Translations under genes and position numbers: made by a program
Part shown: one piece after another, positions 1-36,346 of the stretch
Position numbering within the stretch: position 1 is the first letter of the stretch
Layout: each line of letters starts with the position of its first letter
Assembly (NCBI GenBank): GCA_963839305.1
Contig: CAWIUL010000011.1
Span: 2,505,561-2,569,560, forward strand
Origin: an uncultured delta proteobacterium
GTDB lineage: Bacteria; Myxococcota_A; Polyangia; Polyangiales; Polyangiaceae
Length of the DNA stretch: 64,000 nucleotides
Reading direction: 5' to 3'
The notes under the pieces: model-generated
Databases searched by the model: none
Told to the model about the DNA's origin: nothing
What the model saw: only the letters and a program-made list of their open reading frames with translations

Positions 1-3000
1 CACGCGAACCTCCTCGAGTGGACGACGATGGGGCAAGCCGAGCGACTCGGCGGACGCGGCGTCCACCCGCGCCTCATGGGATCGGCCGCGCTCGCGTGCG
101 TGATCCTGGCCGCGGTCGCCGTGGTCGCGCCGCTCTCGTTGCCGCTCGCGGCGCCCGTGCTCGCGCTCTGGATCAGCGCGCCCGCCGTCGCCGCGTACCT
201 ACGCCGGCCAGAGAAGCGCGCGCCCCCCGAGCTCCTTCCAGCGGAGCGCAAGGAGCTGCGCGTCCTCGCGCGGCGCACGTGGCGGTTCTTCGAGACGTTC
301 GTCACCGAGGGCGATCACCACCTCCCGCCCGACAACTTCCAAGAGGATCCGCGTGGCGTCGTCGCCCACCGGACGTCGCCCACGAACATCGGCCTCTACT
401 TGCTCTCGGTCGTGTCGGCGCACGATTTCGGCTTCATCACGGTCGGAGAGCTCGTCGATCGGCTCGACAAGACGCTCGCGACCATCGAGAAGCTCGAGCG
501 ACGCGAGGGGCACATCCTCAACTGGTACGACACGCAGACGCTCGCGCCGCTCGAGCCGCAGTACGTGTCGACGGTCGACAGCGGAAATTTCGCGGCCTAC
601 CTGTGGACGCTGCGCGAGGCGTGCGAGGAGCTCGTGTTCGCGCCCATCGTGAACCGCACGCTCTTCGACGGGGCGGACGACGCGCTCGCCCTCGCGGCGG
701 ACGCGGGCGCGAACGACCTCGTCCGCGCGCTTCGCGCGACGCTCTCGGGGGCACGCAAGCGGATGACGGGAACGCTCGCCGACGTGTCTTGCTTGCGAGA
801 GGCCGAGCAGGCGCTCGCGCGCGGTGCCGCAGATTCGGAGGGCTTGCCCGAGGTCGCGCGCCACTGGCTCGAGCGCGCCGCGACGCTCTTTCGCGCCGCG
901 CTCGCCGAGGTCGAGCGCATCGACGCGAGCCGCGACGGCGTCCCGCGCGCGCGAACCCTCTCGGACGCCGCCGCGGTCGACGACGCTGCAGCCGAGCTCG
1001 TGCGCTCGCTGCGGCATGATCGGCGCGCGCGCCGGCGCCATCGCCGACGGCATGAGCTTTCGTTTCCTCTTCGACGCCGAGCGTGAGCTCTTCGCGATCG
1101 GTTACAACGCGAGCACGGCGCGGCTCGACACGTCGCACTACGATTTGCTCGCCTCCGAAGCGCGCGTCGCGAGCCTGCTCGCGATCGCGAAGGGCGACGC
1201 GCCGCAGGAGCACTGGTTTCGCATGTCGCGCCCGCGCGCGGCCGTCGGGAGCTCGAGCCGCGTTCTCCTCTCGTGGAGCGGCTCGATGTTCGAGTACCTC
1301 ATGCCACTCCTCGTGACCAAGCGCTTCGAGGGCACGCTCCTCGACGAGACGTACGAGTCCGCGGTGCGAAGGCAGAGTCGCTTGGGGAGCCGAGCGCGGC
1401 GTGCCGTGGGGCGTCTCGGAGTCCGCGTTCAACGTGATGGACCTCGCGATGACGTACCAATACCGCGCGTTCGGCGTTCCCGGGCTCGGGCTCAAGGCTG
1501 GGCTCGGTGAGGATCTCGTCATCGCGCCGTACGCGACGGCGCTCGCGGCGCTCGTCGCACCGCGCGAGCGCGGTCGCGAACTTCCGCGCGCTCGAGGCGA
1601 TGGGCGCGCTCGGTCCGTACGGCTTCTACGACGCGATCGACTGCACGACCGGCCACGTTCCGCCGGGGCGCACGAGCGTCGTCGTGAAGACGTACATGGC
1701 GCACCACGAGGGCATGACGCTCGTCGCGCTCGACAATGCGCTCCACGGGATGCCGATGCAGGCGCGCTTTCACCGCGATCTGCGCGTGAAGGCATCGGAG
1801 CTGCTCCTCGAGGAGCGCGTCCCGGTGCGCGCGCCGCTCGTACATCTTCAAGCGTCCGTCCTCCGCACGCCCGTGCTCAGCGAGCCGGAGCTCGACGTCG
1901 TGGAGCACGTGGGCCTCGGCGCGCGGCCGCTCACGCGCATGCACCTCCTCGGTCACGGCGATCTCTCGACGGCCATCACGGTGCTCGGTGAGGGCTTCAC
2001 GACCTGGCGCGACGCGGACGTCATCCGCTTTCGCGAGGACGCGGCGCTCGAGCGCTGGAGGCATCTTCGTCTACCTGCGCGAGCGCTCCGAGAACCGCGT
2101 CTGGTCCGCCGGGTACCAGCCGACGAAGGCCGAGCCGGATTTCTACGACGTCGCGTTCGCGATCGACCACGTCGCAATCTCGCGGCGCGACGGCGACATC
2201 GAGACGTGCATGGAGATCGCCGTCTCGCCAGAGCACCCGGCCGAGGTGCGTCGAGTCACGCTCACGAACCACGGGAGCGAGCCGCGCGAGATCGACGTCA
2301 CGACGTACGCGGAGGCCGTGCTCGCGCCGCGCGCGGCCGACGTCGCGCACCGCGCGTTCGCGAGCATGTTCGTCGAGACCGAGTGGCTGCCCGAGCGCGT
2401 GCACGCTCCTCGCGCGGCGAAGGCCGCGATCGAGCACGGAGCCGCCGCTCTGGGTCGTTCAGGTCCTCTGGGCGGAGCCCGAAGCGTGGTCGTCGCTCGG
2501 CACGCACGAGACCTCGCGCGCGACGTTCATCGGGCGCGGGCGGACGACGCGCGAGCCCGGCTGCGCTCCATCGCCCGCTCGAGCCGTCGAGCGGCGTGGT
2601 CCTCGATCCGGTGCTCGCGATGCGTCGCACGGTGCGCCTCGAGCCGAGCGGCCACGCGCGCTTCGCGCTGACGACGGCGCTCGCGGCGTCGCGCGACGAG
2701 GCGCTCCAGCTCGCTGAGGCGTTCTCGACGCCGCACATCGTCTCGCGCGTGTTCGAGCTCGCCTGGGCCGACGCGCGCGTCGAGCTCAAGCACCTCGGGA
2801 TCAGCGCGGCGCAGTCGCACCGGTTCCAGCGCTTTCTCTCCGCGGTGATCTTTCCGCAGCCCGCGCTCCGCGGCGCGCCCGATCGCACCGCGTTTCACGG
2901 GCGCGGAGTGAGCGGGCTTTGGGCGCACGGGCTCACGAGCGATCTGCCGATGGTCGTGGTGCGCATCGACGATCCCGATTTCGGCGAGCTACTCCGCGAG

Positions 3001-5824
3001 GTGCTCCTCGCGCACGAGTTCTGGCGCCTCAACGGCGTGTCGGTGGACGTCGTCGTGCTCAACGAGGAGCCGCCCGGCTACATGCAGCCGCAGCAGGACG
3101 CGATCCTCGCCGTGGTGCGCTCGACGCCCGCGGCGTCGCATGTCGATCAGCGCGGCGGCGTGCTGCTTCGTCGCGTGCGCGACATGACCCAAGAGGAGCT
3201 CTCGCTCCTGCTCGCGGACGCGCGCGTCGTCTTGAACGCGTCGCGCGGCTCGCTCGCGAGACAGCTCCGGCGCCTGCAAACCGAGTCGCCTGCGCTCCCG
3301 CGCGCGCTCGTGCCCACGCGCAAGCCGCTGAAGAAGCCGATGGGAGCCGCCGCGCCCGAGCTCGTCGTCAGCTGCGACAACGGCTTCGGCGGCTTCGAGA
3401 GCGATGGCCGCACGTACGCCATGACCGTGTCCGCTTCGCGTCTTCCGCCGAAGCCGTGGTCGAACGTGATCGCGAACCCGCACTTCGGAACGCTCGTCAC
3501 CGAGAGCCGGCTCGGGCTTCACCTGGTCCGGCAACAGCCAGCAGCACAGGCTCACGCCGTGGAGCAACGACCCGGTGAGCGATCCCTCCGGCGAGACGTT
3601 CTACGTGCGCGACGACGACGACGGCTCCTCGTGGTCGTTCACGCCGCTTCCGGCCGGCGGCGGCGCGGAGTTCACCGTTCGTCACGGCCAGGGGTGGTCG
3701 TCGTTCGAGCACGAGCGCGGCGACCTCGGCCACGAGATGGTGGTCTTCGTGAATGTGACCGACAGCGTGAAGACCTCGCGTCTTCGCATCACCAACCGCG
3801 GGCGGCGCGCGCGACGGCTCTCGATCTTCGGCGTCGTCGATTGGGTGCTCGGGTCGAGCCGCGAGCAAAGCCGCGTGTCCATCTTCACCGAGTGGGACGC
3901 CGCGGTCCCCGGCCTCCTCGCGCAAAACCCGCTGTCGCTCCACCCCGAGCGCCACGCGTTCTTCGCCGCGAGCAAGCCCGTCGGCAGCTTCAGCGGCGAT
4001 CGCGAGGAGGTCTACGGCGTCGCCGGATCGCGCGAGGAGCCTGCCGCCCTCGGACGCGTGGCGCTCTCGGGTCGCGTCGGCGGCGGCCTCGACCCATGCG
4101 GCGCGCTGCAGGTCCCCGTGACGATCGCGCCCGGCGAGACCGCGGACGTCGCGTTCGTGCTCGGTGAAGGCGACACGCTCGACGCCGCGCGAACGTACGC
4201 GCGCAAGCACCGCGACGCCGCAGTCGTCGAGACGTCGCTCGAGTCCGCGCGGCGCGCTTGGCGGCGCACCCTCGGCGCGCTCGTGGTCCAGACGCCAGAC
4301 CCCACGATCGACGCGCTGGTCAACCACTGGCTCCTCTACCAGGTCACGAGCTGCAGGATCTGGGGGCGCAGCGCGTTCTATCAATCGGGCGGCGCGTACG
4401 GGTTTCGCGATCAAATCCAGGACGTGCTCGCGCTCCTCCACGCGCGGCCGGAGATCGCGCGCGAGCACCTCGTGCGCGCCGCGTCGAGGCAGTTCGTCGA
4501 GGGAGACGTCCAGCACTGGTGGCACCCTGGGACGGGCGAAGGCGTCCGCACGCGCTGCTCCGACGACATGCTCTGGCTCCCCTACGCCGTCGCCGCGTAC
4601 GTGCGCGTGACCGGCGACGCGTCGATCCTCGACGAGCGCATGACGTTCCTCAAGGAGCGCACGCTCACCGCGGACGACGAGGACGTGTTCAGCTCGCCCG
4701 CGATCACGCAGGACAAGGCGACGATGTACGAGCACTGCACGCGCGCGCTCGACGTCCCACGCCTCGGCCATCATGGCCTCCCGAAGATGGGCACCGGCGA
4801 TTGGAACGACGGGATGAACCGCGTCGGTCGCGGCGGCGAGGGCGAGAGCGTTTGGCTCGCGTGGTTCCTCGCGCGCACGGCGCTCGATTTCGCGCCCGTC
4901 GCGGAGGCGCGCGGAGATCGCGAGCGCGTGGCGTGGTGCCGCAAGCTCGCCGACGACCTCGGGCGCGCGGCCGACGCGCACGCCTGGGACGGCGCGTGGT
5001 ACAGGCGAGCGTACTTCGACGACGGCACGCCGCTCGGCTCGAGCGAGAGCTTCGAGTGCACCATCGACGCGATCGCGCAGTCGTGGGCGGTGATCGCGGG
5101 CGTCGGCGATCCCGAGCGCGCGCGGAAGGCGCTCCGCGCGTCCGAGGAGCACCTCGTACGCACCGGCGACGGCCTGATGCGCCTCCTTTGGCCGCCGTTC
5201 GAGTCGTCGTATCCGGAGCCCGGCTACATTCGCGCCTACCCGAAGGGCATTCGCGAGAACGGCGGTCAATACACGCACGGCGTCCTCTGGACCGTCTACG
5301 CGCTCCTGATGCTCGGCGAGGGCGAGCGCGCGTCGCGCCTGTTTTCCCTGCTCAATCCGATCCATCACGGCGCTTCGTCGGATCTCGTCGCGCGGTATCA
5401 GGTCGAGCCATACGTCGTCGCGGCAGACGTCTACGACTCGCCCGGTCACGTCGGCCAGGGCGGATGGACCTGGTACACCGGCGCGGCGGCTTGGATGTAT
5501 CGCACGCTCGTCGAGGGGATGCTCGGCGTGAAGCGCGCGGGCGACTCGCTCACGGTGAGCCCGTGCATCGCCAAGACGTGGAGCGGGTTCGAGGTGACGA
5601 TTCGCGACGGCGACGGCGAGGTGCACGTCGTCGTCGAGAACCCGAACGGCGTCGAGCGCGGCGTCGAGCGAGTCGAGGTCGACGGCCAGCCCGCGCGCGG
5701 CGGCGCGATCACGCTCACCGGCGCGGCGGGGCGTCGCGAGGTCCGCGTCGTCATGGGCGAGCCGCGGGTCGACAAGGGTTCGGCGGTTGGTGAAAGGGAA
5801 GAACACGCGTCACGACGAGCGTGA
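1..5824 (+). pseudogene. Cyclic beta-1,2-glucan synthase (NdvB/ChvB/Cgs-like, GT84 + GH94) C-terminal ~1930 codons. The 5' end lies upstream of the window. Reading frame broken by 7 net +1 frameshifts.
   Basis: Conserved NdvB-type segments (VAHRTSPTNIGLYLLS, VLLSWSGSMFEYLMPLLV, GVPWGVSESAFNVMDLAMTYQYRAFGVPGLG, LLARRRPRSSTEPPLWVVQVLW, ATFIGRGRTTREPG, NPHFGTLVTES / GFTWSGNSQQHRLTPWSNDPVSDPSGETFYVRDDDDG, QSGGAYGFRDQIQDVLAL, MGTGDWNDGMNRVG) occur in successive frames. ORF-track pieces are 28..1086, 824..1510, 1401..1991, 1507..4167, 1988..2671 and 3575..5824. Shifts fall near 1015, 1376, 1560, 2060, 2400, 2570 and 3508, each f to f+1. Stop TGA at 5822..5824. Confidence 0.8.
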
Positions 5825-5825
5825 C

Positions 5826-6860
5826 TCACATGTTCGCAGACCGGAGCCACTCCTTGTGGTGCTCGGTCGTGTCGTAGTGATCGCTCGTCTTGAAGCGCTC
5901 GTATTTCCCAGTCATCGCGGCGCTCCGCGTGCGGCCGAGGAGGTCTTGGACCTGCTCCTTCGTGAGCGGCTGGAAGTGCTCCACCGTCGCGATCGCTTGA
6001 TCGAGCACGCCCATCGAGTCGCAGCCGGTCACGAGCACGCTGCTCGGCAAATTGAGTGCATATTGCAAGCACTCGACCGCGCTCACCGCCTTGCTCTCGA
6101 GGATGTCGCCGGAGCCGATGGCCTTCATGCCGATGACGCCCATGCGCTTGTCGAGCGCGACGGGCAAGACGAGCCTCTCGAAGCTCTTGTAGTGGGCGTC
6201 CATCACGTTGAGCGGCATCTGCACCGTGTCGAACTGGAAGCCGTGCTCGTCGGCGGCCTTGAGCATCGCGAGGTGGATCGCGGGGTCTTTGTGGCCCGTG
6301 AAGCCGATGTAACGGAGCTTGCCGGCCTTCTTCGCGTCGAGGAGCGCCTCGACGCATCCGCCTTCTGCGAAGCACGCGGCCGGATCGCTCATGCGGATGA
6401 CCTCGTGGATCTGCACGAGATCGATCGCGTCGGTCTGAAGGCGCGCGAGGGACTGCTCGAGCTGCTTCTGCGCCGATGCCTTCGTGCGCCCGTCGATCTT
6501 CGTCATCAGGAACGCGCGCTGGCGATAGCCGTCGCGGAGCGCCTTGCCCATGCGCTCCTCGCTCTTGCCCATGTTGTAGTCCCAGCTGTTGTCCATGAAC
6601 GTGACGCCACGATCGATCGCGCTGCGCACGATGCGAACTGCCTCGCCCTCGTCGGGACGCCCGAGGTGAGCTCCACCGATGCCGATGCGCGAGACGCGCT
6701 CGCCCGTCTTGCCTAGGATCGACATGGGCATTGCGTCCTTCGACTGCGCGCCCGTGAGCGTCGGCAGGTCGCCTTCTTTCGGCGCGCCCTTCTGCGACGG
6801 AGTCTCGTGGCACGCGGCGATCGCGACCGTTCCCGCGATGAACTCTCGGCGACTGATCAT
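5826..6860 (-). CDS. Aldo/keto reductase family oxidoreductase with twin-arginine (Tat) signal peptide
   Basis: ATG at 6860 (MISRREFIAGTVAIAA, RR Tat motif). AKR motifs IGIGGAHLG, DNSWDYNMGKSE, RYIGFTGH. The long upstream extension in the ORF track (to 7253) is Arg/Ser-rich junk. Confidence 0.8.
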   Translation of the reverse strand: MISRREFIAGTVAIAACHETPSQKGAPKEGDLPTLTGAQSKDAMPMSILGKTGERVSRIGIGGAHLGRPDEGEAVRIVRSAIDRGVTFMDNSWDYNMGKSEERMGKALRDGYRQRAFLMTKIDGRTKASAQKQLEQSLARLQTDAIDLVQIHEVIRMSDPAACFAEGGCVEALLDAKKAGKLRYIGFTGHKDPAIHLAMLKAADEHGFQFDTVQMPLNVMDAHYKSFERLVLPVALDKRMGVIGMKAIGSGDILESKAVSAVECLQYALNLPSSVLVTGCDSMGVLDQAIATVEHFQPLTKEQVQDLLGRTRSAAMTGKYERFKTSDHYDTTEHHKEWLRSANM

Positions 6861-6915
6861 GGGATCGCCGTTGCATTCGACGTTCCGCGCGCGGCTCGTG
6901 TGTTTCCTCAGAGGG

Positions 6916-8682
6916 TCATGACGAAGGCGCGGCGGCCTCGGCGTGCCCGTCGTCGAGCTCTTCCTCGGGCAGTAGGGGTTCTGCGACGCGACGCTGGAGC
7001 GTATTTTGCGGCATGAAGTGCTCGATCCATTTCGCGAGCGCGGGGTCGGCGGCGAGCTCCGCGTGAAGGCGCGACCACTCTTCGTCGTCCGCGCCGCGGC
7101 CCTCGGTGGCCTCGAGGAGATCGACGAGGAACGCGTCGCGTGACGGGAGCGCCAGGGCGTCGCCGCGCGTGCGCGCGATGGCGAGCGCCGAACCGCGATC
7201 GCCCCGAACGAGCGCGAGCGCGAGGCGAACGCGAAAGTGTGCCGTTCCCGCATGAGCGTACGTGCGCGCGTTCGGCATCGAGCCGATCACGATCGTCGCT
7301 TCATCGAGCCTGCCGAGCGCCGCGAGGCAAAACGCGCGCTCGGCCGTGAGCGCCGGGCTGAGAAGATCGTAGGACATGGCGCGCATCGCGAGCGGTGAGA
7401 GCGTGTAGGCGAGTCCCTCCTCGCACCGCGCGAGCGCGCCCGTGAAGTCTCCGGAGCGCTCGGCGATTCGTGCGAGCACGAGGGCCGCCTCCGCCGAGCG
7501 CCCCTTCGCTTGGCTCTCGAGCGCGGCGAGCGCGCTTCGCTCGCCTCGTAGCGCGCCAAGCGTGGCCTCGCGGCGGACCGTGCGCTGACGTGTGGCGCGC
7601 ATCGTGTTCAGCGCGAGCAGGCCCATGAAGACTACGCAGAAGAACGGTCCTAGCACTTGCCCGGAGAACCAAAACGGATCAGCCGCGTCGACCTCGACAC
7701 GCGGCGTCGCTGCGCTTGGTGGAACAGAAGGGTTCAATACCTGCCAAATCGCGAGGAACATGAGGACGAGCGCGGCCCACAAGACTGCATACTTCCATCG
7801 CGCGCGCGCCGGCTTGATGGCCCTTGGCACCGAAGACAACGGAACTTCCGCGCTCGTGGGCTCGAATGCAGCGACCGACGATTTGTTCGTCGTCGGCGCG
7901 AGCCAGTTCGAGGCATCAGGCTCCGCGGTCTTCGCCGGGTGGCGATAAATCGTTCGCTTTCGCTCCGCCGCGAAGCGAGCGAGGCCCCGCGCGAGCGCGC
8001 GCTCACGGCCGCCGACGTCGTCCATCACCGGCGCGCAACGCTCGAGGATTTCTCGAACCTCGGGTTTGCGATCTTCGTTGGCGGCCACGATGGCGCGCGC
8101 GAGCTCGCCGCAGGCGTACGTCACCGGCGCGGCGTGGCGCACGTCGCAGGCGCGGTCCGCGTCGGCCTTTGCGCCAGCGTCATCGCGCAGGGACGCTCGC
8201 GCGAGCGCGCGGAGCGAAGACAGCCACGTGATCTGCGTGCGTGCGAGATCGCGACCAATCCATCCGAGCGACACGGCCAGTCCGTCCGTCGCGTGCTTCT
8301 CGGCGGCCTTCGCGTCACCAGCGTCCAGCGCGAGCAGCGCGCGGTGGCCTGCGACCGTACGGGCAGCGAGCCGCGAATGCGGTCTCGCGGCTGCGGCGTC
8401 GACGAGCGCCGCGGCGTCCTCGCGCTCGCCGCGGCGGCACGCGTCGAGCGCGTGATTGAGCAGCGACACCTCCAGAACGCTGCGACTCATGATCAGCGAG
8501 CTCCACACGAAGACGCTGGCGACTGCGACCATGGAGATGCCGGCCACCGGCGACAAGAACACCGCCAAAATCGCCGCGAATAAAATCACGCCGGCGGCCC
8601 ATACGATCTGAACGCGTGCGAGCTTGCGCCCCGGATGCGCCTTCGCCGCGTCGAGGACCTCTTGAACCAACCTCGCCTTCAC
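6916..8682 (-). CDS. Hypothetical polytopic membrane protein with TPR-like C-terminal region
   Basis: 588-aa ORF with several hydrophobic segments (VWAAGVILFAAILAVFL, VLWAALVLMFLAIWQVL, FFCVVFMGLLAL) and Ala/Leu-rich helical repeats. The start is uncertain because it lies only 30 nt from the divergent ligD-pol start. Confidence 0.5.
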   Translation of the reverse strand: MKARLVQEVLDAAKAHPGRKLARVQIVWAAGVILFAAILAVFLSPVAGISMVAVASVFVWSSLIMSRSVLEVSLLNHALDACRRGEREDAAALVDAAAARPHSRLAARTVAGHRALLALDAGDAKAAEKHATDGLAVSLGWIGRDLARTQITWLSSLRALARASLRDDAGAKADADRACDVRHAAPVTYACGELARAIVAANEDRKPEVREILERCAPVMDDVGGRERALARGLARFAAERKRTIYRHPAKTAEPDASNWLAPTTNKSSVAAFEPTSAEVPLSSVPRAIKPARARWKYAVLWAALVLMFLAIWQVLNPSVPPSAATPRVEVDAADPFWFSGQVLGPFFCVVFMGLLALNTMRATRQRTVRREATLGALRGERSALAALESQAKGRSAEAALVLARIAERSGDFTGALARCEEGLAYTLSPLAMRAMSYDLLSPALTAERAFCLAALGRLDEATIVIGSMPNARTYAHAGTAHFRVRLALALVRGDRGSALAIARTRGDALALPSRDAFLVDLLEATEGRGADDEEWSRLHAELAADPALAKWIEHFMPQNTLQRRVAEPLLPEEELDDGHAEAAAPSS

Positions 8683-8711
8683 TTGGCCATCATGATGCCA
8701 CGCCGCATAAG

Positions 8712-10016
8712 ATGACGCCCATGGCGGCGACCAAAGCGCCGAAGAAAGAGTCCGAGCGCGAGGTCCTCACGGTCGCGGGGCGCGAGGTCGTCGTCACGAA
8801 CCCGCGGAAGGTCTTCTTCCCCGAGACGAAGCAGACCAAGCTCGACCTCGTGCGCTACTACCTCGCCGTGGCGGACGGCGCGCTGCGCGGCGTCTACGAC
8901 CGGCCGATGGCGCTCAAGCGCTTCGTGAACGGCGCCGCAAGGCCCGCGTTCTTCCAGAAGCGCGCCCCCGAGAAGCACCCGGACTGGATCAAGACCGTGA
9001 CGCTGAGCTTTCCCTCGGGGCGCACGGCGGACGAGATCGTGATCACCGACGCCGCGCAGCTCGCGTGGATCGTGAACCTCGGCTGCATCGATTTGAACCC
9101 GCACCCGACGCGCTCGCGCGATCTCGAGCACCCCGACGAGCTCCGCGTCGATCTCGATCCGCAGCCCGGCATCGAGTGGAAGCCGATCGTGCAGGTCGCG
9201 GGCGTCGTGCGCGAGGTGCTCCACGACCTGAAGTGCGTCGGCTGGCTCAAGACGAGCGGCTCGCGCGGGATCCACGTGTACGTGCGCGTCCAGCCGAAAT
9301 GGAGCTTCAACGACGTGCGGCGCGCGGCGCTCGCGCTCGCGCGCGAGGTCGCGCGGCGCGCGCCGAAGATCGCGACGAGCAAGTGGTGGAAGGAGGAGCG
9401 CCACGGCGTCTTCCTCGACTACAACCAGAACGCGAAGGACCGCACCGTCGCGAGCGCGTACTCGGTGCGGCCGACGAAAGACGCGCGCGTCTCGATGCCG
9501 CTCCGGTGGGAAGAGCTCGCGGACTGCGAGCCCGGCGATTTCACGCTCGCGACGGTGCCCGCGCTCTTCGCGAAGCACGGCGACGCGCACGCCAAGATCG
9601 ACGAATCGCCGTGCTCGCTCGACGCGATCCTCGAGCTCGCCGCGAAGCAAGAGCACGACGAGGGGGACGCGCCTTGGCCGCCGCATTACAAGAAGCAGCC
9701 CGGCGAGAAGTCGCGCGTCCAGCCGTCGAAGTCGAAAACCGCGGCGCGCCGCGCGAAGCACCCGCTCATCGTCATCGCGCAGGCCGCTGAGAAAGACGAC
9801 GCGCTCGCGGGGCTCGAGCGATGGAAGGCGAAGCACCCGAGCGTCGCCGCGAAGCTCGCGGTGGACGACGTCCTCGTCGACGCGATGCGCGGCCGCCACA
9901 AAACGTGGACGCGCATCCGCATCAACTTGCGAAACGTGCCGGAGTCGGAGAGGCCGCCGCAGGAGACGCCGGACCCGGACTACGACGTGCGCGTCGAGTG
10001 GACGGGGCGCTCGTAG
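8712..10016 (+). CDS. Stand-alone LigD polymerase/primase domain (NHEJ primase-polymerase, PolDom) with a ~130-aa Lys-rich C-terminal extension
   Basis: MTPMAATKAPKKE start at 8712 (alternative 8721). LigD-Pol signatures FFQKRAPEKHPDWIKTV, GCIDLNPHP, ELRVDLDP, WLKTSGSRGIHVYVRV, FLDYNQNAKDRTVASAYSVR. Tail KKQPGEKSRVQPSKSKTAARRAKHP follows. Confidence 0.8.
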   Translation: MTPMAATKAPKKESEREVLTVAGREVVVTNPRKVFFPETKQTKLDLVRYYLAVADGALRGVYDRPMALKRFVNGAARPAFFQKRAPEKHPDWIKTVTLSFPSGRTADEIVITDAAQLAWIVNLGCIDLNPHPTRSRDLEHPDELRVDLDPQPGIEWKPIVQVAGVVREVLHDLKCVGWLKTSGSRGIHVYVRVQPKWSFNDVRRAALALAREVARRAPKIATSKWWKEERHGVFLDYNQNAKDRTVASAYSVRPTKDARVSMPLRWEELADCEPGDFTLATVPALFAKHGDAHAKIDESPCSLDAILELAAKQEHDEGDAPWPPHYKKQPGEKSRVQPSKSKTAARRAKHPLIVIAQAAEKDDALAGLERWKAKHPSVAAKLAVDDVLVDAMRGRHKTWTRIRINLRNVPESERPPQETPDPDYDVRVEWTGRS

Positions 10017-10019
10017 CAG

Positions 10020-10424
10020 TCAGCGTGGGCGGAAGAACCAGCGCTGATCGTGGTTGGTCGCTTGCGTGAGCCGCAGCCCGGCGCCGCAGTCCGCGTCCAA
10101 CGAGTCGTACGAAAAATGCTGACCGCGGAGCGTGAACGTCGTCGGCGAGATCCGCGCGGTCTCGAGCATCGCGTGCCCCGACATCGTCCCGCAGTCTGGC
10201 CTCCAGCGTTCGGGATCGCGTTCGCGCTCCAGCGTGAACGTGACGTGCTCCGCGCCGTCGGCGAGCGTGGCGGTCGCGTGACCGAGGTCGACCGTCAGCG
10301 TGATGCCGCTGAGCGTCGTCGGTTCGTTCAAGTCGTCGCTGACGTAATCGCCGTTCTGAAGCGGAACGCGGTGGACGCGCGTGCACGCGCTCGCGAGGAG
10401 GAGCAACGCCAGCGAGGAGCGCAT
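10020..10424 (-). CDS. Small lipoprotein, hypothetical
   Basis: MRSSLALLLLASAC lipobox signal from ATG at 10424. The stop abuts the ligD-pol stop, 3 nt apart and convergent. Confidence 0.5.
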   Translation of the reverse strand: MRSSLALLLLASACTRVHRVPLQNGDYVSDDLNEPTTLSGITLTVDLGHATATLADGAEHVTFTLERERDPERWRPDCGTMSGHAMLETARISPTTFTLRGQHFSYDSLDADCGAGLRLTQATNHDQRWFFRPR

Positions 10425-10544
10425 CAGTGACAAACCGTGGTGTCGTGAATCACGCACGTACCTGCCGTGACGAAGCCGGAATCGGCCGTCGACCCCACGT
10501 CGAAGCAGTCGGCAAACGTGTCGGCACGGTCTCGACGAGCCAAT

Positions 10545-11618
10545 TCAGGCGCCGAAGATCTTGGCGACCTCGTAGGGCGGGGTCACGTCGAGCTGTTCGT
10601 AAGTGCAATCACTCGGGCGCTTGTCGGGGCGCCAGCGCTTGAAGTGCGACGTGTGGCGGAAGCGTCGGCCCTGCATGTGATCGAACGAGACCTCGCAGAC
10701 GCGCTCGACGCGGAGCGGCTCCCACGAGAGATCCTTCTTCGAGTTCCAGCGGCTCTTCATGCCGGGCTTGCGATCGCCCTCCTCGCGCTGCTCGGCGGCC
10801 CAGTCGGCCCACGGGTGATCCTTCACCGCGTTCTCGCGGAGCGGCTCGAGCTCCTTCAAGAGCTCCTTGCGACGCTCGAGGTTGAACGAGGACGTGACGC
10901 CGATGTGTTGGAGGTGACCCTCGGCGTCGAAGAGGCCGAGCAGCAGCGAGCCGACGGCGACGCCCTTCATGTCCTTGTACCAACGGAACCCCGCGACGGC
11001 GCAGTCGACGGTGCGCTCGTGCTTGATCTCGATCATCGTGCGCTTGCCGGGCGAGTAGACGAGGTTTTCGTCCTTCGCGACGACGCCGTCGAGGCCGGCG
11101 CCCTCGAAGCGGTTGAACCAGTCCGTCGCGAGCGCGCGGTCGCGCGTCGCGGGCGTCATGTAGACGGGCGGCACGGCTTTTCCGAGCGACGCCTCGAGCT
11201 TCGCGCGGCGCTCTTTCTGCGGTTTTTGCCGGAGATCCTCTTCGCCGAGAGCGAGCATGTCGAACGCGACGTACGACGCGGGCCACTGCTCGGAGAGCAT
11301 CTTCACGCGCGACGCAGCAGGGTGGATGCGCTGGAGGAGCGCCTCGAACTGGAGCGCACCACCGTGCGCGATGACGACCTCGCCGTCGAGGATGCATCGC
11401 TCCGGCAGGTTCTTCTTGAGCGGCTCGATGAGCTCGGGGAAGTACCTCTGCAGCGGCTTGAGATCGCGGCTCTGGATGACGACGTCGTCGCCGTCGCGAA
11501 ACACGAGCGCGCGAAAACCGTCCCACTTGGGCTCGAAGATGAAATTCGCCCCCTCGGGGATCCCGCTCGTGAGCTTCGCGAGCATGGGCTCGATCGGCGG
11601 CTTGAAAGGCAACGTCAC
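10545..11618 (-). CDS. ATP-dependent DNA ligase (LigD ligase-domain / LigC type)
   Basis: Intact 357-aa ORF. Adenylation motif I is FEPKWDGFR (KxDG). Also DGEVV, the EGAGLDGVVAK motif, and an OB-fold region. Confidence 0.85.
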   Translation of the reverse strand: MTLPFKPPIEPMLAKLTSGIPEGANFIFEPKWDGFRALVFRDGDDVVIQSRDLKPLQRYFPELIEPLKKNLPERCILDGEVVIAHGGALQFEALLQRIHPAASRVKMLSEQWPASYVAFDMLALGEEDLRQKPQKERRAKLEASLGKAVPPVYMTPATRDRALATDWFNRFEGAGLDGVVAKDENLVYSPGKRTMIEIKHERTVDCAVAGFRWYKDMKGVAVGSLLLGLFDAEGHLQHIGVTSSFNLERRKELLKELEPLRENAVKDHPWADWAAEQREEGDRKPGMKSRWNSKKDLSWEPLRVERVCEVSFDHMQGRRFRHTSHFKRWRPDKRPSDCTYEQLDVTPPYEVAKIFGA

Positions 11619-11698
11619 GGGCGAATGTTAACCGATCGTGGTGCTCTCGCGCGGATGTTCAGGCCCGTGTGGAAGGAGCGTTGATGTAATCTGCCGCG

Positions 11699-13106
11699 AT
11701 GCGCTGGCCGTTCGTCGTCTCCGCGCTCGCGTGCGTCGCGTTCGTGCCGCGATGCGACTCCAAGCCCGTCGCGCGCGTGTGCACGATTGCGCGCCCGCAG
11801 GCGGATTTCAGGCTCGCGACCGACGGCACGAATTTCAAAGACAGCCTCGGGCGCGTCGTCTTCCTTCGCGGGGTCGACGCGGGCGGCCGCAGCAAGTTCG
11901 CGCCCTACGTGCCGTTCGACTTCGGGAGCGACTTCGACGGAGCGCTTGCAAAGTACATGGATCGCGCGGCGGGCTGGGGCATCGACGTCATGCGCGTCCC
12001 GTTCACGTGGGCGGCGCTCGAGCCGACGCAGGGCCAAGACGACCCGCAGTGGCTCGCGCGCTACGACGCGATCCTCGACGCCGCGTGGGCGCGCGGCATC
12101 TGGACCGTGGTCGACTTCCACCAAGACATTTACTCCGAGGTCTATTGCGGCGACGGCTTCCCCGGGTGGACCGTGGCGAACCCGCCCGCGCCTCACCACG
12201 ACTGCCCGCAGTGGTCGTTCTCGTATTTCAACGACGCGAACGTGCAGGCCGCGTTCGACGCGTTTTGGGCGAACTCGGGGAACGTCCAGACCGAGTACCT
12301 CGCCGCGTGGGACGTGATGATCGCGCGCTACAAGGACAAGCCCGGCGTGCTCGGCTTCGAGCCGATCAACGAGCCGGACTCTGGAACGCAGCCGGACGAC
12401 ACGTTCTCCGCGTCCATCCTCACGGCGTTCTATCAGACCATGGTGCCGCACATGCGCGGGCTCGCGCCGACGTCGCTCGTGTTCGTCGATCCCACGGGCA
12501 TCGCGGGCGTCAACCTCTCGACGACGTTGCAGCGTCCGCCGGGCGACGGCGTGGTCTTCGCGCCGCACTTCTATCCGCTCGCGCCCACCCCCGAGGCGGT
12601 GCTCGACAACATGCGCAAATGGCAAGCGGTCGGCGCGCAGTGGAACGTCCCGGTGTGGGTCGGCGAGTTCGGCGCGCGCAACGACTTGCCGAGCACGCTC
12701 CCGTTCATGCAAGCGCACTTCGACGCCTTCGACGCGCTCGGCCTGAGCGGCACCGAGTGGGAGTACAGCCAGTCGGCGGAATCTGTGGAACAGCGAGTCC
12801 GATTGGCTCGTCGACGCGAACGGAAACGAGCTCCCCGTCGCGCAGGCGGTCATTCGTCCGTTCGCGCGCGCGGTCGCGGGCTCGTCGATCGCCACCGGCT
12901 TCGACACGGCGACCTCCACGTTCACGCTCGCGTACGCGCCCGCGAGCGGCGTCACCGAGGTTTCGCTCCCCGCGCGCGCGTATCCGAACGGCTACGACGT
13001 CGCGCTCACGGGCGGGTGCTACGACGTGACGACCGCGCCAGGCCAGATGCTCGTCCAGCCCGATCCGGGCGCGGCGAGCGTGTCGCTCACCGTGACGAGC
13101 CGCTAG
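11699..13106 (+). CDS. Secreted glycoside hydrolase family 5 (cellulase / endoglycosylceramidase-like), one +1 frameshift near 12778
   Basis: Signal peptide MRWPFVVSALACVAFV. GH5 motifs VVDFHQDIYSE, GFEPINEP (catalytic acid/base region), VWVGEFG (nucleophile). After ...EWEYSQSAE the protein continues in frame 0 (LWNSESDWLVDANGNELPVAQAVIRPFARAVAGSSIATGFD...) to TAG at 13104..13106. The ORF track runs on in the wrong frame to 13432. Confidence 0.7.
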
Positions 13107-14839
13107 CTCGCGCGCGCCGCGCGGTGCTCCTTGATCGCTTCGACCTTTTGCGCCGTGAGCACGTGCTCCTTGCCGAGCCACGCGCGCCGCGCGATGCCGA
13201 CGCCGTATTTCAGGTGCAAGAGCTCACGCACCGAGTGCGCGTCGGAGTCGATCACGACCGGCACACCAAGCTCACGGGCCATGCGCGCGCCGTTCTCGGG
13301 CACGTCGAGTCGCAAGGGAGAGCTGTTCAATTCGATCGCGACGCCGGTCTTCGCGAGCGCCGCGAGGATCACCTCGAGGTCGAGCTCGCTCGGCTCGCGC
13401 TGGCCGATCTGGCGCCCGAAGGGGTGACCTAGCGCGTCGATCTTGCCCGACTCGATCGCGCGCACGATGCGCTTGGTCATCTCCTCGCGCGGCATGCCGA
13501 GCTTCGAGTGAACGCTGCCGACGACCCAATCGAGCTTGCCGAGCTCGCCCTCGAGATCGAGCGAACCGTCGGCGAGGATGTCGGTCTCGAGCCCCGCGAG
13601 CACTCGGATCTTGCCCTTCATCTTCTCGTCGACCGCGCGAATGCGCTTCACGTGCGCGCGCAGGCGCTCGACCGTGACGCCGTTGGCGATCGTGAGCGAC
13701 GCGGAGTGATCGGTGATGGCGATGTACTTGCGGCCGGCGGCGAGCGCCGCCTTCGCCATCTCTTCGATCGACGCGCGCCCGTCGGTCTCGGTCGTGTGCA
13801 TGTGGAGATCGCCGATGAGGTCCGAGAGCTCGACGAGCTCGGGGAGCGTGCCGTTCTTCGCCGCCTCGATTTCGCCGCGGTTTTCCCGTAGCTCGGGGGC
13901 CATCCACTGGAGGCCGATCGCCTCGTAGACCTCCTCCTCGGTCTGGCCCGCGATCGATTTTTCTTTCTCGTCGAAGACTCCGTACTCGCTCACCTTGAGC
14001 TTCTTCTTCACGGCGATCGTGCGCATCGCCACGTTGTGCTCCTTCGAGCCCGTGAAGTACTGGAGCGCGGCGCCGAACGACGCGCGCGGCACGACGCGCA
14101 GATCGCACTGGATGCCGTTCTTCAGGATGACCGTGGTCTTCGTGTCGCCGCTCGCGAGGATCTCCGAGACCTCGGGGAGCGTCGAGAACGTCGTCATGAT
14201 CTTCGGCGCGTAGTCCGCGTCGGCCGCGACGAGCATGTCGATGTCGCCCACGGTCTCGCGCCGGCGCCGCAGGCTCCCGGCGAACTCGCACTGGAGCACA
14301 CCGGGCACCGCGCGGACCTTCGCGCAGAGGGCCTCTGCGAGCTCGAGCGCCTCGGCCATGAGCCAGCGCTTCGGCGCGGACGCGCGCTTCCTCCACGCGG
14401 CGATCGACGCGATGAGCTTCTCCTCGCGCTTCGCGCCGAAGCGCGGGAGGTCCGCGAGCTTGTGGTCCTTCGCGGCGGCCTCGAGCGCGTCGACGGTCGT
14501 GATGCCGCGCTCCTTCCACACTTGTTGCGCGGTCTTGATGCCGACGCCGGGCAAGTTCATGAGATCCATGAGGCCGGGCGGGAGCTTCGCGCGGTGCTCG
14601 TCGAGATCGGCGAGCTTGCCGGTCTCGATGAGCTCCTTCATGCGCCGGACGACGCCGTCCCCGATGCCGTGGGTCTTGCCGAGCGTGCCCGCCTTCACCT
14701 TCGCCGCGATCGGCTCGCCCATGCCCTCGATCGCGCGCGCCGCGGTGCGGAACGCCCGCACCTTGAACGGCACCTCACCGAGCAGCTCGAGCACGTCGGC
14801 CAGCTCGAGGAACGTGCGCGCGATGGTCTCGTTGTCCAC
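13103..14839 (-). CDS. polX: DNA polymerase X family protein with C-terminal PHP phosphoesterase domain (PolX)
   Basis: Intact 578 aa. N-terminal helix-hairpin-helix (ARTFLELADVLELLGEVPFKVRAFRTAARAIE). Pol-beta-like nucleotidyltransferase motif GSLRRRRETVGDIDMLV. PHP motif IGDLHMHTTETDG. Its stop overlaps the GH5 stop in a palindromic CTAG. Confidence 0.9.
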   Translation of the reverse strand: MDNETIARTFLELADVLELLGEVPFKVRAFRTAARAIEGMGEPIAAKVKAGTLGKTHGIGDGVVRRMKELIETGKLADLDEHRAKLPPGLMDLMNLPGVGIKTAQQVWKERGITTVDALEAAAKDHKLADLPRFGAKREEKLIASIAAWRKRASAPKRWLMAEALELAEALCAKVRAVPGVLQCEFAGSLRRRRETVGDIDMLVAADADYAPKIMTTFSTLPEVSEILASGDTKTTVILKNGIQCDLRVVPRASFGAALQYFTGSKEHNVAMRTIAVKKKLKVSEYGVFDEKEKSIAGQTEEEVYEAIGLQWMAPELRENRGEIEAAKNGTLPELVELSDLIGDLHMHTTETDGRASIEEMAKAALAAGRKYIAITDHSASLTIANGVTVERLRAHVKRIRAVDEKMKGKIRVLAGLETDILADGSLDLEGELGKLDWVVGSVHSKLGMPREEMTKRIVRAIESGKIDALGHPFGRQIGQREPSELDLEVILAALAKTGVAIELNSSPLRLDVPENGARMARELGVPVVIDSDAHSVRELLHLKYGVGIARRAWLGKEHVLTAQKVEAIKEHRAARAS

Positions 14840-14848
14840 GCCGCGATG

Positions 14849-16645
14849 CTAGCACCGACGACGCCGCGCGATGACGAGCCCCGCGAGCGCGAGCGCGAAG
14901 AACGCGCCGTTTCGCGAGGTCTCGCCGGGTGCGCTCACGGAGCACCCATCGCCGTATTTCGGCGTGTTGTACCCGCCGCCGTAACCGCCGCCGTAGCCGC
15001 CGCCATAGCCGCCGTAGCCGCTCGAGCTCGGGTCTTGCTCGCACGTCCCGATGACCACGTCGGCCGTGTTCGACCCGCTCGCGAACGAGCGCACGTTCGA
15101 GTCCGACACGGTCAGGATCTCGCCGTTGTTCTCGAAGGCGCGGCGCGGATGGTTCGGGAGCGAGAGGAACGAGTCGAGCTCGAGCGAGTCGTTCTGCCAC
15201 TTCACGAGCTGCACGCCGCTCCCATTGTCGCCGCAGCCTTGTGGCGACGAGTACGGCACCGCGACGATGCCGTCGTCGAACACGCGGAACGCCTTCTGGA
15301 TGCGATCCTGATCCTCGGGCAGCTCGCCGTTGAGGATCGCGTAGTCCTCGTAGAAATCGTTCGCCGCGAACGCCGCGCGCGCGAGCATCTTCGGCGAGTC
15401 CATGTTGCTCACGTCGAAGAGCGACACGTTGAGGCTGCCGTTCGGGTCGGTGCGGTCGATGCCGAGGCCGATGATGCGATCGCCGTGCGGCTGGAGGTAG
15501 AACATGAAGCCGGGCATCGCGAGCTGGCCGCGCTGCTTCGGGTTCGCGGGGTCGGTGAGATCGATCGCGAAGAGCGGATCGGTCTGGTTGTACGTGATCG
15601 CGTAGGCGCGCGTGTCGTCGAACGCGACCGTGCGAAGCCCCTCTTGCATCGGGAGCTCGAGGGTCGTCTTGCCGAGCGGCACGAACGACTGCGTGCTCGC
15701 GATCTGGAACGTCTCGACGTTGGGCATCGCGACGCCGTTGCCCGTGCGGCCCGCGCCGACCTGCGAGATCACGCGAAACACGCCGTTTCGCTCGTCCATC
15801 TGCCAGCGGCTCAAGACCGCGCCCGCGACCGTGATGCGCGCGCCCTTGCCGAGCTGACCGCCCGGATCGGTGATGTCGAGCACGTCGATGATGCCCTCGG
15901 GCGGCGCCGTCGTGCAGTCGTAGTAGCAGTACGTCGTCGGGTCGACGTCGGCGTGCCCGCCCACGTAGAGCCGCCCGTCTCCGACGAGGATGCTCCGCGT
16001 CCAGTGCGTGCCCCACGCGAGGTTGTAGCTGTCGGGCGCGTTGCTCTGGAAGCTCGCCTGGTCGACCTGATGGATGCTCGCGGCGTCGGTCGCGTCGAAG
16101 CTCGTCACGAGCGTCTGCGGCGGCGGCGAGCAGCCCTGGCACGGCGAGTCCTCGTACGTCGCCACGTAGAGGATGTTTCCGACGAAGCGCGAGTCGGCGA
16201 GCTGCCCGGGCATCGCGACGTCGGCGCGCTGCACGAGCTTGGACGCGTCCGAGATGTCGAGCACGACAATCTGCGCGTTCGCGACCGCCGGCTCATAGTA
16301 GGTCGCTTGGGTCGTCGTGACATTCGTCATCGCGACGAGATCGTTTCCCCGCAGGTACATCTCGAACGGCTCGCCCGGAATCGTCGTTTGCCCGAGGAGC
16401 GTGAGCGTGCCCGCCTTCGAGACGTCGACGACGCTCACCGTGCCGGAGCGCGACATGGCGTAGAGCCGCCCGTCGCGCACTTGGATGATGTCCGCTTCGG
16501 CGATCGCGCGGGCCGCGTCGCCTGGAGCGGGGGTGGCCGCTGGAGGTGCCGCTCCCGAATTCGCGGAGGAAGAAGCGCTGGCGCCGCACCCGGCGGCGCC
16601 GAGCGCGAGGAGGAGACATGAAGTTAAGGCTAAGGAAGACCGCAT
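14849..16645 (-). CDS. Secreted lipoprotein with a predicted beta-propeller-type body, Gly-Tyr repeat and MYXO-CTERM sorting signal
   Basis: ATG at 16645 (MRSSLALTSCLLLALGAAGCG lipobox). C-terminus ...GYGGYGGGYGGGYGGGYNTPKYGDGCSVSAPGETSRNGAFFALALAGLVIARRRRC matches the MYXO-CTERM pattern (GC motif, TM helix, basic tail). Confidence 0.7.
   Translation of the reverse strand: MRSSLALTSCLLLALGAAGCGASASSSANSGAAPPAATPAPGDAARAIAEADIIQVRDGRLYAMSRSGTVSVVDVSKAGTLTLLGQTTIPGEPFEMYLRGNDLVAMTNVTTTQATYYEPAVANAQIVVLDISDASKLVQRADVAMPGQLADSRFVGNILYVATYEDSPCQGCSPPPQTLVTSFDATDAASIHQVDQASFQSNAPDSYNLAWGTHWTRSILVGDGRLYVGGHADVDPTTYCYYDCTTAPPEGIIDVLDITDPGGQLGKGARITVAGAVLSRWQMDERNGVFRVISQVGAGRTGNGVAMPNVETFQIASTQSFVPLGKTTLELPMQEGLRTVAFDDTRAYAITYNQTDPLFAIDLTDPANPKQRGQLAMPGFMFYLQPHGDRIIGLGIDRTDPNGSLNVSLFDVSNMDSPKMLARAAFAANDFYEDYAILNGELPEDQDRIQKAFRVFDDGIVAVPYSSPQGCGDNGSGVQLVKWQNDSLELDSFLSLPNHPRRAFENNGEILTVSDSNVRSFASGSNTADVVIGTCEQDPSSSGYGGYGGGYGGGYGGGYNTPKYGDGCSVSAPGETSRNGAFFALALAGLVIARRRRC
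14969..15020. repeat. Short tandem repeat (12-nt units ccgccgta[ag]ccg) encoding a Gly-Tyr repeat (GYGGYGGGYGGGYGGGY)
   Basis: gtacccgccgccgtaaccgccgccgtagccgccgccatagccgccgtagccgct lies inside the 3' end of the lipoprotein gene on the minus strand. Confidence 0.6.
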
Positions 16646-27466: not shown

Positions 27467-29222
27467 GACCGATCGCGCGCCGCCGACCATCGATTCAGCG
27501 GCGGCGGCGGCGCATGTCGTAGCGGCCGTATCCGTTCCCGAGATCGCGTCCTCGTGGTCTCTCGGCGCGCTCCGCCGTGCGCTCCGTTGGGCGCTCTCCA
27601 AGCCAAGCGCCGGCGAGCGCGTGGACTGGCTGCGACGTGCTGCCGAGCGACGCCTCACCACCACGGACGTGCGCGCGACGTCGTGGTCCGCGGTGCTCGA
27701 TGACGTCGGACGTGGCGACGCTGCGGCTCGCGCGGCGGCGCTCGCGGCCGCCGCGGTCGATTTCTACGACGAGCTCGAGCGGCCCGACTGCCCGGCACGC
27801 CTTCGAGAGCAATGCGCGACCATCTTCGGGACCACGCTCGTTCCACGCGCCGAGGCCTACGAGAAGCGCCACGGCGCGAGCGCTCACGTCCTCGTCGGCG
27901 CCGCAGGCGCGCTCTGGGTGGTCGCGGTGCGAGACGACGCGGGCAACGCTCGTCACCCGGACGACCTCGCCGAAGATTTTCGCGCGTGCCTCTCGCACGA
28001 GGGCTCGGAGGATCACGTGCTCCGCGTCACGAGCCTCCGGCGGAGCGAGTCCGCGCCGCTCTGGACCAAGCTCGAAGCGGACGCCGAGTCCGCGGCTGCG
28101 CTGAGCGGCGCGCTCTTTTCGGTCTTCTTCGACGCCAGCGCGCCCACGTCGGTCGACGCGTGCGGCGCGCTCGCCCAAGCGGCGGCGCCGAGCAATCGCT
28201 GTCACTGGCACGCCCTTCAAATCGTCGCGTTTCGAAACGCGCGCGTCGCGCTCGTCGGCAACTTCACCGCCGGGGTCGAGGGCGAGGCCGCGTTCGAGCT
28301 GTGCAAGCGACTCTTGGCCGGAATGTCGGCGCGGCGCGAGCGCCGCAAGACCACCGCGCGACCGCCCGCGCGCCTCGAGTGGAAGCTCGACGACGAGACG
28401 CGGGCAGCGCTCGCGTCGACCCGCGATCGCGGCGTCGTCGACGCGGGCGGATTCGTCCGCGTGCCCGGCTTCGGCCACGCGCGCTGGAAGGAGCTCGACG
28501 TCTCACCCGAGGGCGCCACGGTCCTCGCGCTGCGCCTCGCGCTCGCGCGCGCCGGCGCGAAGCTCGACGCCATCGACTGCATGGTGAACATCGCGCACTT
28601 CGAGGAAGGGATCGCCACGCGCCTCAACACGGCCACCGCCGACGCGATGACATTCGTCGAGCTCGCGGACTCCTCGCCCGAGTCGGCGGAGTGCGCCGAG
28701 GCCGTCCGTGCCGCGCTCGACGCGCACCGCGCGCTCGTCCGTGAAGCGAAGCAGTTGTCCAGCGCCGAGCAGATGCTCCACTTCGCGATCCAGCGCCTAC
28801 GGCGCCTCGGCGCCCTCACGCGGCTCGTCGTCCGCCTCGCGGTCATTTGGGTCCTTTGGAGCGTCGTTCGCGTCGCCGACGATCCGCAACGGCGTCCGTG
28901 GGTCGCGCTCGACTCGAGCGTTCGTCACGTGCGTGGCGTCGCTGCGATTGGCCGTTTCGGGCTCTTCGCGCCGCCTCACACGCTCTGGGTTCACCACATG
29001 ATCGGCGAAGACGAGACGCGCCTCGTGATCCAGTCGAGCCGCGAGCAGCTCGTGAGCGCAAAGAAGCTCCAAAAGCTGATGCCCGCTGCGTTCGAGTCGA
29101 TCGCCGTCGCGGCCGCAAGACGAGCGAGCGCCTCACGCAGCGCGAGCCCCGCGCCCGTCGCGCCCGTCATCGCGGTCGGCCGCTTGAGAGGTTTGCTCAG
29201 TGCGGTCGCGGGCGCATCGTGA
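27459..29222 (+). CDS. Hypothetical protein (587 aa)
   Basis: Intact ORF, translationally coupled to pcnB (ATG 27459 overlaps TGA 27464..27466). No family confidently recognised. Confidence 0.5.
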   Translation: MPETDRAPPTIDSAAAAAHVVAAVSVPEIASSWSLGALRRALRWALSKPSAGERVDWLRRAAERRLTTTDVRATSWSAVLDDVGRGDAAARAAALAAAAVDFYDELERPDCPARLREQCATIFGTTLVPRAEAYEKRHGASAHVLVGAAGALWVVAVRDDAGNARHPDDLAEDFRACLSHEGSEDHVLRVTSLRRSESAPLWTKLEADAESAAALSGALFSVFFDASAPTSVDACGALAQAAAPSNRCHWHALQIVAFRNARVALVGNFTAGVEGEAAFELCKRLLAGMSARRERRKTTARPPARLEWKLDDETRAALASTRDRGVVDAGGFVRVPGFGHARWKELDVSPEGATVLALRLALARAGAKLDAIDCMVNIAHFEEGIATRLNTATADAMTFVELADSSPESAECAEAVRAALDAHRALVREAKQLSSAEQMLHFAIQRLRRLGALTRLVVRLAVIWVLWSVVRVADDPQRRPWVALDSSVRHVRGVAAIGRFGLFAPPHTLWVHHMIGEDETRLVIQSSREQLVSAKKLQKLMPAAFESIAVAAARRASASRSASPAPVAPVIAVGRLRGLLSAVAGAS

Positions 29223-29550
29223 CCTGCTGAAGAATGTGCAAGCACGCGTTCGCTTCACGCCCGGTCACGACTCCGTCCGAGGTCACGCTCGAAGTGCAAT
29301 CTCGCACGCGCAAGATCGCGAGGTCGAGGTTCGCGCGCGAGTCGTCCGAGAGGCGCGATGTGTTCTTGTGCGCCAAATCGACGTACCAGTTCACGAGCTT
29401 TCGGAAGTTGTCCGACGACATGGGAAACACGAGCGGCGGAGGCTTCGTCTCCGGCATGGCCGGGTGAGGAGTCGCCGCGTGCTGGCTGTACGCAGCTCCA
29501 GCGAACGTGACCGCCGCGAGCGCGGTCGCAAGCACGAGGCGCGCTTTCAT
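29197..29550 (-). CDS. Small secreted hypothetical protein
   Basis: Signal peptide MKARLVLATALAAVTFAGAAYS, 117 aa. Its start overlaps the upstream stop by 4 nt. Confidence 0.45.
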   Translation of the reverse strand: MKARLVLATALAAVTFAGAAYSQHAATPHPAMPETKPPPLVFPMSSDNFRKLVNWYVDLAHKNTSRLSDDSRANLDLAILRVRDCTSSVTSDGVVTGREANACLHILQQVTMRPRPH

Positions 29551-30539: not shown

Positions 30540-30549
30540 GGCCCTCTCC

Positions 30550-31026: not shown

Positions 31027-31033
31027 CGGTGCC

Positions 31034-32678: not shown

Positions 32679-32684
32679 GTGCGC

Positions 32685-33718: not shown

Positions 33719-33760
33719 CCTTCCTCTTTTATCACGCGGAGAGAGACCGAACGCTTCAAA

Positions 33761-33940
33761 TCACTGGAATTGCTGGGCAGCCGACGTACCCGCCGTGCTG
33801 ACGCTCTTACCGACGCTCTTGTAGACGACCGCCGCGATGACGAGGATCAGGAAGAGGAGGATGGCGTACTCGACCATCGTCGCGCCCTTCTTGTCCTGAA
33901 TGAGCTTCGAAAACTTGCTGGACTTGATCATCTTGTTCAT
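33761..33940 (-). CDS. flp: Flp family type IVb pilin (59 aa, not in the ORF track)
   Basis: Translated by hand: MNKMIKSSKFSKLIQDKKG|ATMVEYAILLFLILVIAAVVYKSVGKSVSTAGTSAAQQFQ. Classic Flp motif G/xxxxEY plus hydrophobic helix. AGGAGAG Shine-Dalgarno 7 nt upstream. Confidence 0.8.
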   Translation of the reverse strand: MNKMIKSSKFSKLIQDKKGATMVEYAILLFLILVIAAVVYKSVGKSVSTAGTSAAQQFQ

Positions 33941-33955
33941 CGGGTCTCTCCTATT

Positions 33956-34313: not shown

Positions 34314-36346
<2,033 letters not shown>

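Follow-up and report, generated by a model that had tools for sequence, protein, structure and literature searches.

Cyclic beta-1,2-glucan is a polysaccharide important in osmoadaptation and host interaction. The window considered here, a 64-kb stretch of DNA, begins inside a gene for a putative cyclic glucan synthase (cgs) whose reading frame, in the sequence as given, changes seven times. The question this raises is whether the gene is truly broken or is intact and poorly represented in the assembly. A preliminary description had left two alternatives, a genuine decaying pseudogene or a region of unusually low quality; the latter fits all of the sequence-only evidence, and decay is not supported by it. 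The locus is very probably an intact cgs gene with consensus insertion errors, and the apparent pseudogene is most likely an artefact of the assembly.

The gene and its domains

The gene at 1..5824 on the plus strand is Cgs/NdvB-like, as first described, and on this Pfam, homologs and PDB alignments agree. The Pfam domains within it are PF10091, two copies of PF06165, and PF17167 (E = 5e-117). Once its frame is corrected, as set out below, the encoded protein finds thousands of homologs in a protein search. The best of these, mostly from Polyangiaceae/Myxococcota MAGs, are 2811-2832 aa long, match at 72-73% identity with 99-100% query coverage, carry PF10091, PF06165 and PF17167, and go by the source names cyclic beta-1,2-glucan synthetase or 'glucoamylase family protein'. 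In the PDB the matches are two cryo-EM structures, 8rf0 and 8rf9, both of A. tumefaciens Cgs, and one crystal structure, 8wy1, of the cyclization domain from T. italicus.

In the known layout of Cgs (PMC10901819), an N-terminal domain and GT84 are followed by a six-helix transmembrane domain, the cyclization (CY) domain (residues 979-1535) and a GH94-like glucan phosphorylase (GP) half. The 5′ ~870-900 codons, corresponding to the N-terminal domain, GT84 and most transmembrane helices, precede the first base of the window. What falls in the window is the end of the transmembrane region, its last hydrophobic stretch being visible in the first ~60 codons, together with the CY domain and the entire GP half. 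The features, with reading frames F1 to F3 as given, are:

200..1875, plus strand: cyclization (CY, GH189) domain, in continuous alignment to 8wy1 and 8rf0/8rf9; its bounds are approximate, with limits from PMC10901819
1145-1165, plus strand, F2: LLASEAR, with a conserved CY catalytic E (role from PMC10834661)
1283-1306, plus strand, F2: SMFEYLMP, with a conserved CY catalytic E (role from PMC10834661)
1410-1430, plus strand, F3: GVSESAF, with a conserved CY catalytic E (role from PMC10834661)
1696-1716, plus strand, F1: MAHHEGM, with the conserved CY HH (role from PMC10834661)
1876..5821, plus strand: GH94-like glucan phosphorylase (GP) half, from Pfam, PDB alignment and motif mapping
~2054-2677, plus strand: first supersandwich domain of the GP half, split over three frames
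~3506-4166, plus strand: second supersandwich domain of the GP half
~4259-5528, plus strand: GH94 catalytic domain of the GP half, with GDWNDGMN at 4796-4819

The same order of a GH189-type CY domain followed by a GH94-type GP half, in continuous alignment, is found in A. tumefaciens Cgs. The GDWNDG catalytic motif is kept, its second D aligning with 8rf0 residue 2528, the catalytic acid D2528 (PMC10901819), and the full-length homologs of 2811-2832 aa have the same Pfam set. Unlike the A. tumefaciens enzyme, the window gene comes from a Myxococcota/Polyangiaceae-like lineage rather than an alphaproteobacterial one, is read without its N-terminal GT84 half and, as given, has seven +1 frame breaks. 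The alignment to TiCGSCy, the founding member of GH189 from Thermoanaerobacter italicus (8wy1; PMC10834661), is gapless over 259 residues (E = 5e-85). The catalytic residues of TiCGS are E1356, E1400, E1442 and H1536/H1537 (PMC10834661), and the counterparts of all of them are conserved in the window CY domain; unlike those of TiCGSCy, they are spread over three reading frames because of the second and third frame changes (J2 and J3 below). The catalytic Glu pair and conserved HH that mark a CY domain are thus present only after frame correction. In the corrected protein all catalytic residues of both the CY and GP (GH94 phosphorylase) domains are retained, and the ORF listing bears out that the GH94 half, 3575..5824, is one clean ORF of 749 codons. 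By these alignments the gene adds an ordinary new member to the Cgs family and extends it to a Polyangiaceae-like lineage; its 72-73% identity to the nearest known members is unremarkable.

Seven changes of frame

Since the window is very GC-rich (~70% G+C), and long ORFs in all six frames are uninformative, the coding frame was determined in three independent ways. In a GC3 frame plot over 1..5824 the position of highest GC cycles 0>1>2>0>1>2>0>1. A frameshift-aware protein-to-DNA alignment against the best genomic homolog, from a Polyangiaceae MAG (L001), contains seven '+1 nt skipped' events and no others. A codon-usage Viterbi analysis, trained on the other genes of the window, places +1 shifts at 1013, 1368, 1558, 2060, 2436, 2533 and 3509. 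All three methods agree with the original count of exactly seven, and with the original view that the frame changes are insertions, as all seven are in the same direction with one extra base each. In the Pfam results a single GH94_b-supersand domain is divided among frames 2, 3 and 1, and ordinary tblastn forced through frame 1 gives arginine-rich nonsense at ~2050-2590.

The positions of the junctions were refined by comparing each with the 13 best homologs. From one junction to the next the frame runs F1>F2>F3>F1>F2>F3>F1>F2, with changes at ~1015, 1376, 1565, 2053, 2399, 2559 and 3508, the inserted base being ambiguous within 1-6 nt at most sites:

1012..1015, plus strand: J1 (F1>F2), one extra base, either C1015 or a G of CGG; homologs read LRMIGARA across
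1374..1378, plus strand: J2 (F2>F3), one extra base, placed in CAGAGTC rather than in the GGGG run that follows
1563..1567, plus strand: J3 (F3>F1), one extra C or G in CCGCGCGAG
2053, plus strand: J4 (F1>F2), an extra C between GAG and GCT; the GAG encodes an E conserved in 13/13 homologs inspected
2397..2402, plus strand: J5 (F2>F3), one extra G or C in GAGCGCGTGC, best at ~2399, which restores PERC(T/A)LLA
2557..2561, plus strand: J6 (F3>F1), one extra C or G in GAGCCCGGCT, with the longest homopolymer of the seven sites (3 nt)
3507..3509, plus strand: J7 (F1>F2), one extra C or G in AGCCGGC; the frame is clean from there to the stop codon
1084..1086, plus strand: first stop codon if the sequence as given is translated from the window start in F1

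At J2 the homolog pattern Q-[VIM]-[AED]-[WYH]-G is restored only by removal at 1374..1378. When the seven bases are removed, a single 1938-codon ORF with zero stops results. Against the 13 best homologs it has no gap at any of the seven junctions, and no residue is lost or gained.

Homopolymer slippage, weighed as a possible cause, was rejected: runs at the sites reach 3 nt at most, and the pattern seen in homologs rules out the G4 run close to J2. Slippage in nature would be biased towards homopolymers and, with no site in one longer than 3 nt, is a poor explanation. A k-mer enrichment test at the cgs sites found nothing enriched. The motif GAGCGC, shared by J3-J5, is not significant, as 52% of random site sets do as well, and TCGA and GATC occur too often in this genome to be meaningful as site motifs.

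These features of the sites bear on whether the extra bases might be real and bypassed in expression, by +1 ribosomal frameshifting, transcriptional slippage or RNA editing, with full-length enzyme being made. The uniform direction, and the perfect conservation of each downstream segment in its own frame, are what such programmed recoding would give. However, the seven sites have no slippery or stalling motif in common, no zero-frame codon at the shift sites is rare or a stop, and transcription would have no homopolymer on which to slip. With seven inefficient steps in succession the yield would be negligible, and the intact orthologs are without such sites. Recoding here has a probability close to nil.

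The seven junctions are alike in type, context and conservation of their flanks. It is very unlikely that one or two of the insertions are real and recently inactivating while the others are consensus errors. Such a mixture would make the clustering discussed below slightly easier to explain, but no site stands out in any of these three respects, and two processes would be required where one suffices.

Constraint on the corrected gene

An inactive gene would be expected to differ from its relatives in more than its frame, and alignment to intact orthologs for nonsense or missense decay beyond the frameshifts, a check proposed at the outset, found none. The corrected protein was aligned with 56 full-length homologs, in which 335 columns are identical in all homologs. 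It differs at 1 of the 335, an R>Q change at corrected residue 1817, where the gene has no frameshifts; in the frameshift zone 0 of 144 invariant columns are changed. When each of the 56 intact homologs is left out in turn and treated in the same way, the mean number of invariant columns changed is 1.7, the median 1 and the maximum 9. The corrected gene has no nonsense codons, no deletions and no indels longer than 1 nt, and GC3 is near 0.9 in every frame segment. Compared with an outgroup set, the window Cgs has an identity of 0.669 and its sister clade one of 0.655, with the same picture segment by segment, and by this measure the lineage shows no acceleration. The relative-rate test was, however, set aside as a way of detecting decay, being too insensitive to exclude ~25 extra replacements; the count of invariant columns was judged more informative.

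How much could have been seen can be estimated. In bacteria there are ~5 base substitutions per indel event (regression in PMC4978911), so that seven real indels should bring at least 30 substitutions, ~4 of them at invariant positions. The contrast between ~4 expected and 0 seen in the zone gives a likelihood ratio of only ~30, a moderate test, and tests of this kind are insensitive to very recent events.

The spectrum of the lesions provides a second line of evidence. In high-GC Burkholderia, pseudogenes and mutation-accumulation lines have an insertion:deletion ratio of ~0.76-0.94 and many indels longer than 1 nt (PMC6054270). With insertions slightly rarer than deletions in the natural spectrum, seven single-base insertions out of seven are improbable (P ~0.004 or less at p = 0.45 per event). 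The pseudogenes of Burkholderia leaf-nodule symbionts (PMC6054270) resemble the window gene in having several frame-disrupting indels within one gene. They are unlike it in that deletions outnumber insertions, many indels exceed 1 nt and substitutions accompany them, whereas cgs has 1-nt insertions only and no excess of substitutions.

Genuine decay is disfavoured by these results, the changes at 1/335 invariant columns overall and 0/144 in the zone going with the lack of any nonsense codon, deletion or homolog gap. What would be left is a very young pseudogene, in which all seven insertions are real and synthesis of cyclic beta-1,2-glucan has been lost. Its product would end at 1084, inside the CY domain and ahead of its catalytic glutamates; truncations of A. 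tumefaciens Cgs without the C-terminal half are inactive (PMC10901819). The extra bases are after all present in the sequence as given, where translation stops at 1084, and their ~14-fold density in cgs relative to the rest of the window is not predicted by a uniform error process. Against this, relaxed constraint is otherwise unseen (1/335, 0/144, zero nonsense codons, deletions or multi-base indels, GC3 of 0.9), and +1 insertions in seven of seven cases, outside homopolymers, are contrary to bacterial indel spectra (PMC6054270). Seven independent insertions would have to have been fixed before any detectable substitution, and the identical lesions in unrelated conserved genes of the window, YggS included, would need a separate explanation. 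A young pseudogene is accordingly an unlikely reading, though the least improbable of the rivals to consensus error.

Insertions across the window and their probable origin

The locus is syntenic with that of an intact homolog (P0003, from L081), the shared genes being Cgs, an aldo-keto reductase, a 579-aa gene, a LigD primase-polymerase, a ligase, GH5 and PolX; the genes neighbouring cgs are 75-86% identical to their L081 counterparts. Two further L081 genes, for a DLH-type hydrolase and an M28 peptidase, have no match in window positions 1-16000. [The stop codon of cgs (5822-5824, plus strand) and that of the convergent aldo-keto reductase gene (5826-5828, minus strand) are nearly back to back, leaving no space for a terminator between the two genes.] No same-species sequence was found, the best match being 73% in the protein search and, among the matches listed, 58% in a scan of genomic contigs; nor is an identical DnaK protein on record. 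A pattern scan of metagenomes for J7, with the extra base allowed to be present or absent, gave no sequence match.

Outside cgs six disruptions had been claimed; four are verified by homology (~12782, 35762, 35674 and 52795) and a fifth (~31170) is probable. The conserved block and the affected genes are:

5826-14839: block conserved with L081 downstream of cgs, with the aldo-keto reductase, a 579-aa protein of unknown function, the LigD-type primase-polymerase, an ATP-dependent DNA ligase, GH5 and PolX
11699-13106, plus strand: GH5 cellulase (PF00150 + PF18564), shift from frame 2 to 3 at ~12782, with the Pfam domains in different frames
31034-32636, minus strand: 533-aa gene, probable +1 insertion at ~31170 near the 3′ end
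34436-36346, minus strand: DUF255/YyaL-type thioredoxin-domain gene, +1 insertions at ~35762 and ~35674
52323-53010, minus strand: YggS (PLP homeostasis), one +1 insertion at ~52795; the corrected protein is a full-length match to TIGR00044

The GH5 ortholog in L081 is intact, with 469 aa and 70% identity on both sides of the ~12782 shift. The two insertions in the DUF255/YyaL gene, a second case of clustering, are only 88 nt apart, and its corrected protein aligns continuously to PDB 7tkv through three frames. The 533-aa gene has no Pfam or NCBIfam match, and a +1 insertion at ~31170 is probable from the much more protein-like C-terminus that the other frame gives after that point. That gene lies in a stretch (29000-35000) where G+C is 0.58-0.65, versus ~0.70 elsewhere, and which may be a horizontally acquired segment. 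The codon-usage Viterbi analysis finds zero frame changes in dnaK, polX, comEC, the TPR gene and the two ~460-aa paralogs, as the preliminary description had it. Of the Viterbi calls, 28 in total, those within ~12 nt of gene ends, and all −1 calls, were rejected as overlaps of adjacent genes or gene-end effects; the overlaps concerned, 4-nt overlaps among them, are acyltransferase/hydrolase, HlyD/FtsX, sigma/anti-sigma, HPRT/TPR and methyltransferase/YggS.

At three of the five insertion sites outside cgs (~12779, 31166 and 35758) there is a GAATC/GATTC from which removal of one base leaves GATC (k-mer permutation test, family-wise p ~0.01). A methylated GATC motif that is systematically miscalled could account for those sites, but the pattern is not common to the cgs sites.

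The window thus has 11-12 disruptions in 64 kb, all of them single-base insertions, with no deletions. The seven of cgs lie within 2.5 kb (1015-3508), versus ~1 per 10 kb elsewhere, and the local excess first remarked on is real: 7 of 12 events fall in 9% of the window (Poisson P = 1.4e-4), an excess of ~14-fold by density. Clustering at this level (P ~1e-4) calls for an extra local cause beyond uniform error, and points to a local patch of poor consensus, for instance one of low depth or failed polishing. The GC content of the frameshifted stretch is not exceptional. An effect of the contig end fits badly, since the first 1012 nt are without a frameshift.

The type of lesion, a single-base insertion outside homopolymers, is common to cgs, GH5, DUF255/YyaL and YggS, which are unrelated conserved genes. 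At ~1 broken gene per 10 kb outside cgs, a 10-Mb genome would have ~1000 broken genes; this is not credible for a free-living myxobacterium-like organism and is typical of an indel-rich consensus. That the extra bases in cgs and elsewhere are real, in a lineage that tolerates or bypasses frequent +1 insertions outside homopolymers in proteins under purifying selection, whether by recoding in the RNA or on the ribosome or following a recent burst of mutation specific to insertions, is highly improbable. Indel-rich draft assemblies from single-molecule long reads, in which consensus errors produce frameshifted 'pseudogenes', have in common with the window that disruptions are single-base, of one type, distributed among unrelated conserved genes and clustered locally, and that ORFs colinear with orthologs are restored once the extra bases are removed. 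They differ in that the window sites are outside homopolymers and every event is an insertion.

Raw errors of single-molecule long reads are mostly random insertions. We infer that such errors, with low local coverage or incomplete polishing, are the cause here, and that the extra bases are missing from the real DNA. The seven breaks would then be single-base consensus insertion errors in a 2.5-kb patch of poor assembly or polishing, and the same error process would have produced the isolated +1 insertions in other genes of the window. The organism would carry an intact cgs, under selection, for a membrane enzyme of ~2800 residues, in which the GT84 domain is predicted to polymerise UDP-glucose to beta-1,2-glucan, the GH94 phosphorylase domain to trim glucan length and the GH189 cyclization domain to close the ring.

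The result is mainly a caution that the assembly needs polishing before any pseudogene is called from it. Given ~1 +1 insertion per 10 kb outside cgs, many other 'pseudogenes' of the same assembly are probably artefacts too. An annotator who accepted the sequence as it stands would call the locus a pseudogene and record the organism as being without cyclic beta-1,2-glucan.
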